Positions 2,004 to 6,249 of a stretch of DNA of 6,249 bases are shown one piece after another. The stretch is taken from IMG/VR virus record IMGVR_UViG_2778261571_000006; one strand, given 5' to 3'. Below the pieces are notes generated by a model. The model had not been told where the DNA came from, searched no databases, and saw only the letters and a program-made list of their open reading frames with translations. This DNA comes from a virus. Taxonomy: Duplodnaviria; Heunggongvirae; Uroviricota; Caudoviricetes. The translations under genes were made by a program, and so were the position numbers. Position 1 is the first letter of the stretch. Every line of letters begins with the position of its first letter.

Positions 2004-2138
2004 AATATCTTTGTATGGTATGTAGCTGACACCTTCCAGACCATCGTTACCACTTGGGCCAGTGATTAACACTGATGCTATAGCAATTGCTCCGCCACCA
2101 ATAGCAGCAGCAACGGCTTTTCGTAATGATGGAGGCAT
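1999..2138 (-). pseudogene. SAR endolysin (phage 21 R-type), 5' portion upstream of the IS2 insertion
   Basis: ORF 1821..2138(-). The N-terminus [47 protein letters not shown] is a Gly/Ala-rich signal-arrest-release segment. The start ATG at 2136-2138 overlaps the holin stop (TAATG). Removing IS2 and one TSD copy rejoins this to 305..667 in frame: 140 + 363 - 5 = 498 nt, i.e. 165 codons plus stop. Confidence 0.9.
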
Positions 2139-2353
2139 TATTCACCTCTCGCAGCCTTGCGCTTATCTTCTTTAATCTTGAAATAAAGGTTTGTCAGGTA
2201 CGTCAGCAGGCCAAATACCAGACTACCCAGCACACCGATTGCAGCCCACTGTGACGGAGTTACTCTATCGAGCAACTGTAAAAACCAGTAGCCAGCACTG
2301 CCTGCGGAGGTGCCGTAGGCAATGCCTGTTGAAATTTTGTCCATGGATTTCAT
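2138..2353 (-). CDS. Pinholin (phage 21 S-type class II holin) with dual start Met1/Met4
   Basis: ORF 2138..2410(-). The likely true start is the ATG at 2351-2353, preceded by GGAGGTGAGGCT, giving [26 protein letters not shown]…[12 protein letters not shown] (71 aa). Two transmembrane segments and a charged C-terminus. Met1-Lys-Ser-Met4 matches the antiholin/holin dual-start motif. Confidence 0.85.
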
Positions 2354-2453
2354 AGCCTCACCTCCGCACGGAACGGATGGCATAGTTATTATGTGTAGGC
2401 TTTCAGACACATCAATCAGAGCCTTAATTGATATATATGCTGGAGACGATGCA

Positions 2454-2479
2454 ATATAAAAAGCTCGCCGTAGCGAGCT
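2454..2479 (-). terminator. Candidate intrinsic terminator (minus strand) between the lipoprotein genes and the holin
   Basis: 7-bp GC-containing stem AGCTCGC / GCGAGCT (2462-2468 and 2473-2479) with loop CGTA, followed on the minus strand by TTTTATATT. The T-run is short and interrupted. Confidence 0.4.
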
Positions 2480-2604
2480 AATAAAATGTATTTCTCTGAT
2501 ATTATGTTTATTTGTATTAGCTCAGACTTGACATCACAGGTTTCGTATATAGAACATCATCAAATCTGTCAGTTTGCTATGAATGAGATATAGTAATTGA
2601 AGAG

Positions 2605-3000
2605 CTAACCTCGCATGTCAAAGCCAGATTTCTGAAAATCTCTGTAGACTTCCGGATTGTTGAAGGCCGGAAATTTGGCTTTATGAGCTGCGGACTTTAT
2701 CGCTTCGCAATAGGCTTTATCACCGTTACTGGTAGATATTTTTAACGCCGTGCCATCCTGAGAGAATTCCATATGCAACCTGCATTTTTTCCCTTTCCAG
2801 TTATGCGGCTCATCAAGTTTGGCATTAATTGCAGCTCTGATTCCCCGCGCTTGCGCCCCCCATTCATCCTGATCATCCCAGCGTCCTGAACTGCAACTAC
2901 CTGTAGCAGTAGTTTTGTGGCAATCTGAAGGGTGTAAAGGTGTGCATCCCGCAACAAAACCGACCCAAAAAGTCAACATAACGATTTTCTTTAATCCCAC
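2605..3000 (-). CDS. Outer-membrane lipoprotein with a divergent TolA domain III-like C-terminal domain
   Basis: ORF 2605..3000(-), 131 aa, GTG start preceded by GAGGAG at 6-nt spacing. Signal peptide MGLKKIVMLTFWVGFVAGC with lipobox VAG-C and Thr at +2. The C-terminal region (…KGKKCRLHMEFSQDGTALKISTSNGDKAYCEAIKSAAHKAKFPAFNNPEVYRDFQ…) has the same Cys, Gly-Asp and PEVY..F spacing as the neighbouring paralog and TolA. Confidence 0.7.
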   Translation of the reverse strand: MGLKKIVMLTFWVGFVAGCTPLHPSDCHKTTATGSCSSGRWDDQDEWGAQARGIRAAINAKLDEPHNWKGKKCRLHMEFSQDGTALKISTSNGDKAYCEAIKSAAHKAKFPAFNNPEVYRDFQKSGFDMRG

Positions 3001-3150
3001 TTCTTGCTCCTCAATCCATTAAAATCTCAGCAATAGTAGTTGTTACGTCCGCCACTGGCTCAGAGCTGACTATCCGCTAAATTTAGCTCAGTGCCGTAGC
3101 TGTGTCAGAACAAACCTAAGCCGAAACCGTTTATTACAAAACAATAAATA

Positions 3151-3579
3151 TCAGGGTTTAAAATCCAGCACCCCATTTTGAAATACTTTATATACTTCCG
3201 GCGAAGGGGGGGCAGGTATATCAGCATTCTTTATCGCATTCATCGCTTCACGACATAAATCGAGGTCTCCACTTTCTCTTTTAACCTCCAGTAGAAGGCC
3301 ATTCGGGGCCATATGCATTCTCAGTGTACACTCTTTTCCTGAATACTTACTCGCATCCCCGAACTGTTTTTCGATGGCGCTCTTGATTTGATGGGCATAC
3401 AGACGGATATCCTCACTAACATCAGAAGTACGTTCAGATGAACTCACATACTGTGTCTCTATTGCTTTATCGGAGTAATATGATGTACGGTCATGATAAT
3501 TTGTCGATACAGCATCAGTGCACCCGATAATAATCCCACTAATAATCAACGTAAGAATTGATGCGCTACGAAAACCCAT
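3151..3579 (-). CDS. Outer-membrane lipoprotein with a TolA domain III-like C-terminal domain
   Basis: ORF 3151..3579(-), 142 aa, ATG preceded by GAGGAAAA. Signal peptide MGFRSASILTLIISGIIIGC with lipobox IIG-C and Thr at +2, then a Ser/Thr-rich linker. The C-terminal about 85 residues (IRLYAHQIKSAIEKQFGDASKYSGKECTLRMHMAPNGLLLEVKRESGDLDLCREAMNAIKNADIPAPPSPEVYKVFQNGVLDFKP) align closely with the E. coli TolA C-terminus as I recall it (…QIKSAIESKFYDASSYAGKTCTLRIKLAPDGMLLDIKPEGGDPALCQAALAAAKLAKIPKPPSQAVYEVFKNAPLDFKP). Confidence 0.8.
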   Translation of the reverse strand: MGFRSASILTLIISGIIIGCTDAVSTNYHDRTSYYSDKAIETQYVSSSERTSDVSEDIRLYAHQIKSAIEKQFGDASKYSGKECTLRMHMAPNGLLLEVKRESGDLDLCREAMNAIKNADIPAPPSPEVYKVFQNGVLDFKP

Positions 3580-3608
3580 TTTTCCTCACATATGTCATAT
3601 AGTAAAGG

Positions 3609-3638
3609 ATTATATATACCGTTGTTTTGGACGCTCAA
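3609..3638 (-). promoter_or_regulatory. Candidate sigma70 promoter for the lipoprotein pair
   Basis: On the minus strand, TTGAGC (-35-like, 3633-3638) and TATAAT (3609-3614) are separated by 18 nt, about 30 nt upstream of the 3579 start codon. Found by eye only. Confidence 0.3.
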
Positions 3639-3696
3639 ACAGCGAATCAGATCAAATAAAACGCACATTTGTTAACATTTACACAAAGTCTGCGTG

Positions 3697-3717
3697 GGAT
3701 ATTCTGAAAGAATATCC
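3697..3717. promoter_or_regulatory. Perfect 21-bp palindrome GGATATTCT-GAA-AGAATATCC (candidate operator)
   Basis: 9-bp arms with a 3-bp spacer, about 60-100 bp upstream of the candidate lipoprotein promoter. No adjacent T-run on either strand, so it is not terminator-like. Confidence 0.35.
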
Positions 3718-4170
3718 ATAATGTGGAGAGAATCTATTGAAGTGCATGGTGCCGGGTGCCTCCCGGTGAACAAAATGTTCGTGATACCTGTCGGCGACAG
3801 AAAAGGTTAATGGTATCACCCCACCGCACAGGGGGATTCACCATGCAGGAGTTTTCTTAGCAAACTCACTGCGCGCCCGGCAACTCCCAACCACATAAAA
3901 TGCGGAGTTTGTGGTATTTATGCATATAACTCGCAGGAATTATCTTAAAAAACTGATGTCGATCCGGATTAAAAAGAAGCAGGTCATCATCAGATGACTG
4001 GAAAAAAGGAAAACAAAAAATACTCATCATACAGTTTTGATTGCAGGGATGAGCCTGCTATGCACAATATGCAGAATATAAGCAAGATAAAAATATGCAG
4101 GCATATTATTTCGGATTTTGTTATTAACACAACCTTTTTAATAATCATTTGGCATACAATAAACCAGCCC

Positions 4171-4196
4171 AAAAAGAACCGCCTAAACAGGCGGTT
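4171..4196 (-). terminator. Intrinsic terminator (minus strand) in the late-leader region
   Basis: 8-bp stem AACCGCCT / AGGCGGTT (4177-4184 and 4189-4196) with loop AAAC, followed on the minus strand by CTTTTTGGG. Confidence 0.5.
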
Positions 4197-4440
4197 GGTC
4201 AATACAAAGGATGCTTCGTCTTTATTATAGTAATCTGAGGCGTCGGGTGTCTTGTATCAGACAACATATTGTCCCGCTAAACAGCGAATTACAAACCACC
4301 CTGCAATGATCTCTCATCTCATTTTATATGAGTTGACGACATCAGGATAACGCATCATCAGCCCCTGCCAAGAAATATCAAAACTCCCGCCAGCAATGTG
4401 TTATCACAATATTGTAAAAAAAACACAGCACCGAAACTAT

Positions 4441-4479
4441 AACTGGTCTCTGTTATAATTTGGAGCAGAAAGACCAGTT
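4441..4479. repeat. 9-bp inverted repeat (AACTGGTCT … AGACCAGTT) enclosing a TATAAT hexamer
   Basis: Arms at 4441-4449 and 4471-4479; the 21-nt spacer contains TATAAT at 4454-4459. Confidence 0.3.
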
Positions 4480-4516
4480 GCCCAACTAGCAGCATTCTCC
4501 CCTGCTTTCCTGACGT

Positions 4517-4543
4517 AAAAAAACCGCATTAAGCGGTTTTTTT
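4517..4543. terminator. Bidirectional intrinsic terminator just downstream of the Q-like gene (tR'-like position)
   Basis: AAAAAAACCGC-ATTAA-GCGGTTTTTTT: a GC stem flanked by a 7-A run and a 7-T run, so it is U-tailed on both strands. It lies about 80-105 nt downstream of the stop at 4624 on the minus strand. Confidence 0.6.
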
Positions 4544-4623
4544 ACGATGTCCATGTCTGCAATCCGCCTCGCGATACAGCTTTGCGAAGCATAGCAAAAT
4601 TGAAGCAGTTTATACGTAAGAAA

Positions 4624-6194: not shown

Positions 6195-6249
6195 GGTAAT
6201 GACTCCAACTTATTGATAGTGTTTTATGTTCAGATAATGCCCGATGACT
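6195..6249 (-). mobile_element. IS1 end (terminal inverted repeat), element continues beyond the window
   Basis: GGTAATGACTCCAACTTATTGATAGTGTTTTATGTTCAGATAATGCCCGATGAC matches the IS1 terminus including the InsB 3' end. Only this end is visible. Confidence 0.85.
6210..6249 (-). CDS. insB: IS1 transposase InsB, C-terminal codons only (partial at window edge)
   Basis: The minus strand reads …VIGHYLNIKHYQ* with the TAA stop at 6210-6212, which is the InsB C-terminus as I recall it. Confidence 0.7.
   Translation of the reverse strand, partial: VIGHYLNIKHYQ

Follow-up and report, generated by a model that had tools for sequence, protein, structure and literature searches.

What brings two small lipoprotein genes to expression between the late antiterminator gene and the holin gene of a damaged prophage, and what could their products do there? 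The question arises from a 6,249-nt stretch of Caudoviricetes DNA (IMG/VR record IMGVR_UViG_2778261571_000006; hereafter the window), in which a first-pass annotation had assigned to the pair the architecture of a moron, with its own promoter, its own terminator and an AT-rich composition. A moron, in the sense of Juhala and Hendrix, is an extra transcription unit in a phage operon. The explanation that we favour, with about even confidence, is that positions 2392-3770 constitute a cargo cassette in the slot between the Q antiterminator and holin genes of a decayed lambdoid remnant of the Rac-site type, and that this cassette has its own terminator, an internal promoter and genes for two lipoproteins serving as decoys of the TolA tip. 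The mobility of the insert and, at the level of sequence, its terminator bear out part of the moron architecture, whereas the promoter is unproven. The architecture as such is familiar, with cargo between Q and the lysis genes as in the case of Shiga toxin (Stx); the interesting part is the cargo itself, which is uncharacterised.

Comparison with related loci supports the view that the pair, encoding lipoprotein 1 (142 aa, 3579-3151, minus strand) and lipoprotein 2 (131 aa with a GTG start, 3000-2605, minus strand), is a mobile accessory insertion, a cargo cassette in the variable Q-holin slot. The Rac and Qin prophage sites both contain the segment ~2392-3770 (99-100% identity), in each case preceded by a Q gene that is unrelated to that of the other site. 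In one class of Escherichia coli genomes the window is matched over 2400-3770 at 99.6-99.9%, and beyond the upstream limit of the match there are a different Q gene and transfer RNA (tRNA) genes. At holin loci without the pair, of E. coli and of phages alike, the match to the window stops at 2380-2392; the cassette is therefore placed at ~2392-3770, terminator included. Its downstream edge lies 30-40 nt ahead of the holin start, and its upstream junction lies within CACCGGGAGGCACCCGGCACCATGCA, the invariant core of a copy of the RNA element STnc100 (~3745-3772; alignment A1 and the match limits). Delimited in this way, the accessory cassette of ~1.4 kb comprises the 3' part of STnc100, a spacer with a candidate promoter, both genes and the terminator. 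Among 50,697 phage records, the cassette was present in a single one, mEp460_ev081 (window 2137-3770 at 99%), and is lacking from the mEp460 record, showing the presence/absence between related phages that characterises morons. In bacterial chromosomes it is common, as the cassette spacer occurs in 788 of 5426 complete E. coli genomes (~14%). A 1,355-bp phage-linked variable region annotated as 'TolA protein, hypothetical protein' has been reported previously (PMC6854850).

The AT-rich composition of the block is real, although it proved to be modest. Its guanine-plus-cytosine (GC) content is 0.411 for 2454-3720, compared with 0.47-0.50 for the holin, Rz, Q, YbcO and DUF1367 genes; the difference is due mainly to the spacers (0.32-0.41), the two lipoprotein genes having 0.424 and 0.460. 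The whole Q-holin interval (2354-4623) has a GC content of 0.415, and the feature is thus not specific to the pair.

The closest architectural parallels are stxAB of Stx phages, in the slot from Q to S, and bor and lom of lambda, which likewise are extra blocks in a late unit with presence/absence and an own terminator. Variants of gene 1 (65-91% identity) were found alone in loci ordered Q, (other cargo), tRNA genes, the gene itself, an STnc100-type terminator, the nanS-p esterase gene and holin; this is exactly the slot, between the tRNA genes and STnc100, in which Stx phages carry stx. The present cassette differs from these systems in that its cargo is a pair of TolA-domain lipoproteins and not a toxin or a serum-resistance protein, its own promoter is only a candidate, and its host element is a remnant that is probably non-inducible.

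The terminator is the better supported of the two proposed transcription signals. The hairpin with a T-run that had been noticed between gene 2 and holin corresponds to an intrinsic-terminator-like hairpin followed by a U run (2457-2479, minus strand), located 125 nt past the gene 2 stop and 109 nt ahead of the holin ATG. It reads AGCTCGC-TACG-GCGAGCT at 2479-2462, followed by TTTTTATATT, and as RNA has a 7-bp stem with 5 G-C pairs, a UACG loop and 5 U in the tail UUUUUAUAUU. The predicted fold has -13 kcal/mol (z score -3.4), and none of 200 shuffled sequences folds as well. The hairpin is always linked to gene 2 and is missing from holin loci without gene 2, and is thus credible as an intrinsic terminator belonging to the cassette. 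Between this terminator and holin, at the downstream cassette junction, there is a promoter-like site TTGATG-16-CATAAT (9/12, 2415-2388, minus strand); were it active, it would allow Q-independent transcription of the lysis genes.

Two more hairpins lie between Q and the cassette. The first is a tR'-like terminator hairpin just 3' of Q (4514-4546, minus strand), a 14-nt perfect inverted repeat with A and T runs on both sides, and thus bidirectional; it folds at -19.7 kcal/mol (z -5.2 against shuffles), and we infer that it acts as tR'. Matches to isrK (4590-4517), the Thr-leader and AgrB at 4513-4619 were rejected, all of them being far below the family thresholds, and they are at most a hint that a short transcript from the late promoter stops at this hairpin. 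The second is a terminator-like hairpin in the untranslated late leader (4177-4196, minus strand), AACCGCCTGTTTAGGCGGTT followed by CTTTTT (-13 kcal/mol, z -2.0). A 10/12 promoter-like site, AAGACA-18-TATAAT (4253-4224, minus strand), is located ~28 nt before the hairpin at 4196-4177, and the minus strand of 4253-4170 could be a small RNA unit of ~50 nt or merely a second late-leader terminator; homology with locus L004 stops at 4252. Under the favoured explanation, polymerase unmodified by Q would halt ahead of the cassette, at 4514-4546 and probably at 4177-4196, and Q-modified polymerase would read through all terminators. With terminators between Q and the cassette, expression in a quiescent remnant would therefore need an internal promoter. 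The cassette terminator, in turn, would stop the cassette transcripts before holin, protecting the cell from holin read-through.

The only good candidate for such an internal start is the sigma-70-type promoter TTGAGC-18-TATAAT (3638-3609, minus strand), which is found where the first-pass annotation had predicted it and matches the consensus in 10 of 12 positions. Its -10 element ends 30 nt ahead of the gene 1 ATG (3579), with a GAGG Shine-Dalgarno sequence in between. Gene 2 would probably be co-transcribed with gene 1, because there is no terminator before gene 2 and no convincing promoter of its own: upstream of gene 2 the window has only a 9/12 promoter-like match at 3108-3080. The site TTGAAA-17/18-AAGAAT, located ~45 nt upstream of the stand-alone gene 2 copies on the Enterobacter kobei and Serratia chromosomes, was considered as a promoter of gene 2 and discarded, since it is not kept in the window. 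Conservation of the spacer that holds the candidate upstream of gene 1 is uninformative: of the 788 genomes with this spacer, 778 have it at 99% identity or more, and such near-invariance has no power as a promoter test.

Several observations weigh against expression from within the cassette. An equal or better match to the promoter consensus arises in 4.9% of 2000 dinucleotide-preserving shuffles of the gene strand of 3580-3700, and the 18-nt spacer of the candidate is suboptimal; the match is therefore suggestive and borderline above chance, not significant. The -10 element reads TGTAAT in the sole diverged variant (locus L004), and some eight records have TGTAAT. In distant gene-1 loci, the 130 nt next to the start contain no promoter-like site, shared or otherwise, and there the gene may be transcribed along with tRNA or late transcripts. 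The hairpin at 4177-4196 is weak and makes a poorer case than that at 4514-4546. The late promoter was not located with confidence; the most likely site, picked by eye, is TTGATT-17-TTCAAT (4627-4599), which fails the rules of the promoter scan and is a tentative candidate. Finally, a position directly upstream of holin fits a late, lysis-linked role equally well.

These points lead to a somewhat unlikely but serious alternative, in which the cassette is late-operon cargo only. In that case there would be no working promoter of its own, and the lipoproteins would be made only by Q-modified read-through from the late promoter to the lysis genes, and would obstruct Tol-Pal, weaken the outer membrane and in this way assist lysis or release; the hairpin at 2462-2479 would then be a vestige or would stabilise the 3' end of processed messenger RNA. 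This alternative draws on the location of both genes directly upstream of holin, on the same strand and within the late transcription unit, on the borderline promoter match with its alteration in L004, and on the distant gene-1 loci without a promoter-like site nearby. It also accords with the report that cells in which the TolA-TolB contact is blocked have a leaky outer membrane and show the tol phenotype in full (PMC4339652). Three observations speak against it: strong purifying selection maintains close relatives of gene 2 on plasmids and as single chromosomal genes, in settings without lysis; a terminator just before holin is what an independently transcribed insert needs; and the cassette is intact in remnants with an endolysin split by the insertion sequence IS2 and a lost early region.

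The state of the window illustrates this last point. All of its genes lie on the minus strand except for the inserted IS2, and together they represent a lambdoid prophage late region. They include the DUF1367 gene (6052-5453), the YbcO gene (5453-5163), the gene for a Q-type late antiterminator of the DUF1133 / Phage_antitermQ type (5166-4624; 356 and 26 bits with the respective Pfam models), which is the marker of the late-operon context, the phage 21-type class II holin gene as the first gene of the lysis cassette (2353-2138; Pfam Phage_holin_2_1, 120.9 bits), and Rz (320-39). About 1 kb downstream of Q contains no convincing open reading frame (ORF), and a tRNA scan of the window returned zero tRNA genes, in contrast to the related loci. 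IS2 (668-1993) splits a signal-anchor-release (SAR)-type endolysin gene, and the entire region upstream of the DUF1367 gene has given way to an IS1 end, which forms the final 55 bases of the window (6195-6249). This prophage copy is therefore incapable of normal lysis and has no early region in the window. An uninterrupted copy of the locus, itself no more than a short remnant, adjoins trkG, ynaK and ompN, which mark the Rac site; the same late region was also found at the Qin site.

Upstream of the candidate promoter, the 21-bp palindrome pointed out in the first pass (3697-3717, minus strand) is exact, with the 9+3+9 structure GGATATTCT-TTC-AGAATATCC. We rejected it as an operator, as it proved to be the terminal stem of an STnc100 copy (Rfam RF02076; 3876-3690, minus strand). 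The cmscan score of this copy, 86.6 bits (E 7e-19), passes the curated gathering score of 47, and the match covers the full model length (1-206), with the palindrome aligned to the 3' terminal stem-loop of the model. Copies preserve the stem and vary in its sequence, as expected of an RNA hairpin and not of a protein operator. The palindrome folds at -9.5 kcal/mol (z -3.9), compared with -19.6 kcal/mol for the canonical STnc100 terminal hairpin. The window copy ends with GGAUAUUCU-UUC-AGAAUAUCC followed by CACGCAG, an AU-rich 9-bp stem with no U tract. Canonical copies have GCCCCUCUCCGGAGGGGC followed by UUUUUU (DNA ends GCCCCTCTCCGGAGGGGCTTTTTT, or GCCCCTCTCCGGAGGGGC followed by T6), and the window copy thus lacks both the GC-rich terminal hairpin and the U tract. 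Canonical copies also share an upstream extended -10-like motif, TGTTAAATT, which we infer to be the STnc100 promoter; in the window copy it reads as a degraded GCATAAATA, and the 5' half of the copy scores poorly.

Several studies have reported on this RNA family. Eleven STnc100 copies are transcribed in uninduced cultures of the enterohaemorrhagic E. coli (EHEC) strain EDL933, one of them confirmed by Northern blot (PMC5331693), and Stx2 phages have a copy 75 nt downstream of stx2 (PMC12370729). In Salmonella LT2, binding patterns of RpoD and RpoN were recorded at STnc100 promoter regions by chromatin immunoprecipitation with exonuclease treatment (ChIP-exo; PMC10794520), and STnc100 has been related to the PasD small RNAs (sRNAs) of prophages (bioRxiv 10.64898/2026.05.13.724894). 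The window element resembles these RNAs in its full-length match and in its usual place between Q and the lysis genes, and differs from them in the AU-rich terminal hairpin without a U tract and in the upstream motif, which is degraded. Instead of a free-standing sRNA gene, the window element may represent a leader or the scar of a recombination event.

Transcription could start at the STnc100 promoter and, the terminal hairpin having no U tract left, continue into both lipoprotein genes, with STnc100 as a long structured 5' leader. The transcription of STnc100 copies in uninduced EHEC and the RpoD and RpoN patterns in Salmonella are in line with such read-through, as is the contrast between canonical copies, which end in a strong terminator, and the copy before gene 1, which does not. 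We nevertheless consider this scenario unlikely, given the degraded promoter motif and the poorly scoring 5' half of the window copy.

STnc100 also touches on the way in which the slot is filled. Related loci have one to five copies of it between Q and holin, among them tandem arrays of up to four copies as well as single copies flanking cargo (L007 1943-2922 and 4681-4893; L004 4370-4832 and 5554-5727). The invariant 26-nt core falls at the cargo junction, and it is probably a portable homology patch for recombinational cargo exchange between prophages. A search for an STnc100 remnant downstream of either lipoprotein gene found none in the window.

The cargo consists of two predicted lipoproteins of the same design, in agreement with the first-pass assignment as a lipoprotein pair. 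Both ORFs pass the lipobox rule (a basic n-region, a hydrophobic core and [LVI..][ASG..][GAS]-Cys in the first 35 residues) and match the regular expression of the PROSITE PS51257 type, with ...IIIG-C20 in lipoprotein 1 and ...FVAG-C19 in lipoprotein 2. After the signal peptide, lipoprotein 1 continues with a ~30-aa linker and a TolA domain III at residues 55-142; lipoprotein 2 has a linker of similar length with a conserved Cys/Trp/acidic segment, followed by a TolA domain III at residues 44-131. Under the +2 sorting rule, Thr at position +2 predicts the outer membrane as the destination. Both proteins have Thr at this position, which predicts that they are sorted to the outer membrane.

Both proteins have the TolA domain III fold. 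The Pfam TolA C-terminal model (PF06519) scores 82.6 bits with lipoprotein 1 and 54.6 bits with lipoprotein 2. Aligned to residues 334-421 of E. coli TolA, the domain of lipoprotein 1 is 59% identical end to end and that of lipoprotein 2 is 31% identical (E 5e-9 for the match to TolA in the Protein Data Bank). AlphaFold2 models are confident (predicted local distance difference test, pLDDT, ~90) for residues 50-142 of lipoprotein 1 and 40-131 of lipoprotein 2, and residues 1-49 and 1-39, respectively, are modelled as disordered. In Foldseek searches, the model of lipoprotein 1 superposes on 2x9a_B with a root-mean-square deviation of 0.7 A and a template-modelling (TM) score of 0.96, and that of lipoprotein 2 on 3qdp with 1.1 A and 0.92. 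The disulfide cysteines are kept in both. Neither protein has TolA domain I (the transmembrane anchor) or domain II (the long helix); the full-length TolA models of NCBIfam match only the last ~95 positions of the proteins, three of the four matches being below the cut-offs, and the genes are located in a prophage late region, on plasmids or as singletons and not in a tol-pal operon. The lipoproteins are therefore not TolA orthologues. They share with TolA the complete domain III fold and the disulfide pair and, in gene 1, the LDFKP edge strand and the QIKSAIE helix, and differ from it in that a lipoprotein signal peptide takes the place of domains I and II, which makes coupling to the TolQR motor impossible. 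Existing annotations do not reflect this structure. The NCBI Prokaryotic Genome Annotation Pipeline (PGAP) describes gene 1 in L001 (12752-13012) as a pseudogene, 'tolA, incomplete, missing N-terminus', and in other genomes as an intact 'cell envelope integrity protein TolA'; both labels, 'TolA' and 'tolA pseudogene', are misleading. Both proteins belong to PHROG 5772, 'unknown function', and neither matches a profile of PADLOC-DB v2.

The pseudogene call raises the possibility that nothing in the block is functional, in which case the signals would be chance motifs in an AT-rich spacer and the ORFs decaying fragments of a captured tolA. The overall numbers of promoter-like and terminator-like matches in the region, which do not exceed the shuffled expectation, agree with this notion. 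We regard it as highly improbable, since the ORF in L001 does not differ from the intact 142-aa ORF of the window, with its own signal peptide and lipobox, and the palindrome falls within a curated RNA family match (E 7e-19). The ratio of nonsynonymous to synonymous substitution rates (dN/dS) is 0.26-0.42 for lipoprotein 1 and 0.11 for lipoprotein 2, indicating that both genes are under purifying selection. The lipobox Cys is invariant in 16 family members and, together with the disulfide pair, is kept across all variants of both families. The ORFs are also intact in remnants unable to complete a lytic cycle.

The two families differ in their distribution. The gene 1 family is narrow (46 clusters, all named ones from E. 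coli or Shigella), and the gene 2 family extends widely, its 370 clusters (78-89% identity) coming from Citrobacter, Enterobacter, Serratia, Raoultella and Klebsiella. A gene 2 copy of ~88% identity is present on ~600 PLSDB plasmids. On IncI-type plasmids the homologue closes the nikA-nikB relaxase operon, facing trbC (L003 6003-6434; L009, L010 and L011 6004-6435), and on pO157 it lies beside a nikB remnant; a more distantly related TolA-domain gene is carried by ~310 further plasmids, mostly from Klebsiella. On the chromosomes of Enterobacter kobei (L012), Serratia marcescens (L015) and Citrobacter amalonaticus (L018), gene 2 stands by itself, and no phage genes adjoin it. In S. marcescens (L015 6001-8736), the homologue is located directly ahead of GmrSD and HEPN genes in a defence-islet-like arrangement. 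That conjugative plasmids and chromosomes have retained gene 2 speaks for a function in living cells and not in lysis only. The homology between plasmid and prophage copies is restricted to window positions 2602-3030, and the plasmid homologues have ATG at the start position where the window has GTG. The spacer between the two lipoprotein genes contains a 12-bp perfect palindrome, GCTAAATTTAGC (3076-3087), as well as CTGACACAGCTACGGCACTGAGCT (3080-3108), which resembles CTGACAGAGCTATGGTACTGAGATC upstream of the plasmid gene 2 copies. The plasmid homology of gene 2 may thus reach beyond the BLAST limits, broken by a ~60-nt insertion.

What the proteins could do is suggested by the ligand surfaces of TolA domain III. 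The site shared by TolB, colicin N and the filamentous-phage protein g3p comprises the first helix (G334-E349) and the last strand (F412, A415-K420), with key backbone bonds at D418 and K420 (PMC4339652), and the colicin A site comprises L375-P380 with K368, K379 and K396 (PMC3365938). Lipoprotein 1 keeps the YA-QIKSAIE helix and the LDFKP edge strand of the shared site and most residues of the colicin A site, including K379 and K396, with LLEVKR replacing LLDIKP. Lipoprotein 2 is more diverged on both surfaces. Its residues 20-43 (2871-2942), CTPLHPSxCHKTTATGSCSSGRWDDQDEWG, are near-invariant across genera and yet are modelled as disordered, and their G-x-W ... acidic ... W pattern is a loose echo of the colicin TolB box (GASDGSGWSSENNPW, PMC2821528). 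The linker of lipoprotein 1 (3424-3519) keeps SSSER. The post-anchor segment or linker could be a second binding epitope.

The leading interpretation is that both lipoproteins would act as TolA-tip decoys. Uncoupled from TolQR, they would capture the ligands of TolA domain III, namely the N-terminus of TolB, the translocation domains of colicins and g3p of filamentous phages. Such capture would lower Tol-dependent import and could shield the cell from colicins or filamentous phages. Export of TolA domain III to the periplasm is reported to make cells colicin-tolerant and leaky (Levengood-Freyermuth et al. 1993). The converse arrangement has been described, in which a periplasmic TolA III ligand, pIII-N1, made cells resistant to colicin A and lowered phage uptake by 4 logs (PMC10424213). 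The common element is a contact between TolA III and a ligand that is disturbed in the periplasm; in that study the ligand was overproduced from a laboratory construct, whereas here a natural gene copies the receptor domain.

A second parallel is provided by Llp of T5 and Cor of phi80, N15 and HK022, small phage-encoded envelope lipoproteins that act on the outer-membrane receptor FhuA. The likeness, for which no relation in sequence was sought or found, is that small phage envelope lipoproteins would guard the host by interfering with an import route; the difference is that the present proteins would be mimics of a periplasmic hub domain. Two considerations count against the decoy function. 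A decoy that also binds TolB could harm the cell's own Tol-Pal function, and neither a PADLOC profile nor a paper in the literature searched ties the family to exclusion. The full-text literature searched likewise contained no paper on phage- or plasmid-encoded TolA-domain lipoproteins.

More broadly, we tentatively propose, as a possibility rather below even confidence, that TolA-tip lipoproteins are an unrecognised and widely mobile class of envelope decoys, carried by E. coli prophages, IncI-type resistance plasmids, pO157 and the chromosomes of many Enterobacterales, that block group A colicins and pilus-specific filamentous phages. They would catch the TolA-binding or TolB-dependent steps of the invaders at the outer membrane, and on plasmids whose pili serve as phage receptors, gene 2 would, if this is true, be a means of self-protection. 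With regard to annotation, the labels 'TolA' and 'tolA pseudogene' would need to be replaced, and STnc100 copies can be read as marks of cargo-exchange junctions. About one complete E. coli genome in seven has these two proteins, copies of the TolA domain on which colicins and filamentous phages dock, and a close relative of lipoprotein 2 is carried by hundreds of IncI-type plasmids and by pO157. If these proteins are decoys, colicin tolerance and phage exclusion would have a widespread and transferable determinant, with a bearing on strain competition in the gut and on plasmid-targeting phage strategies.

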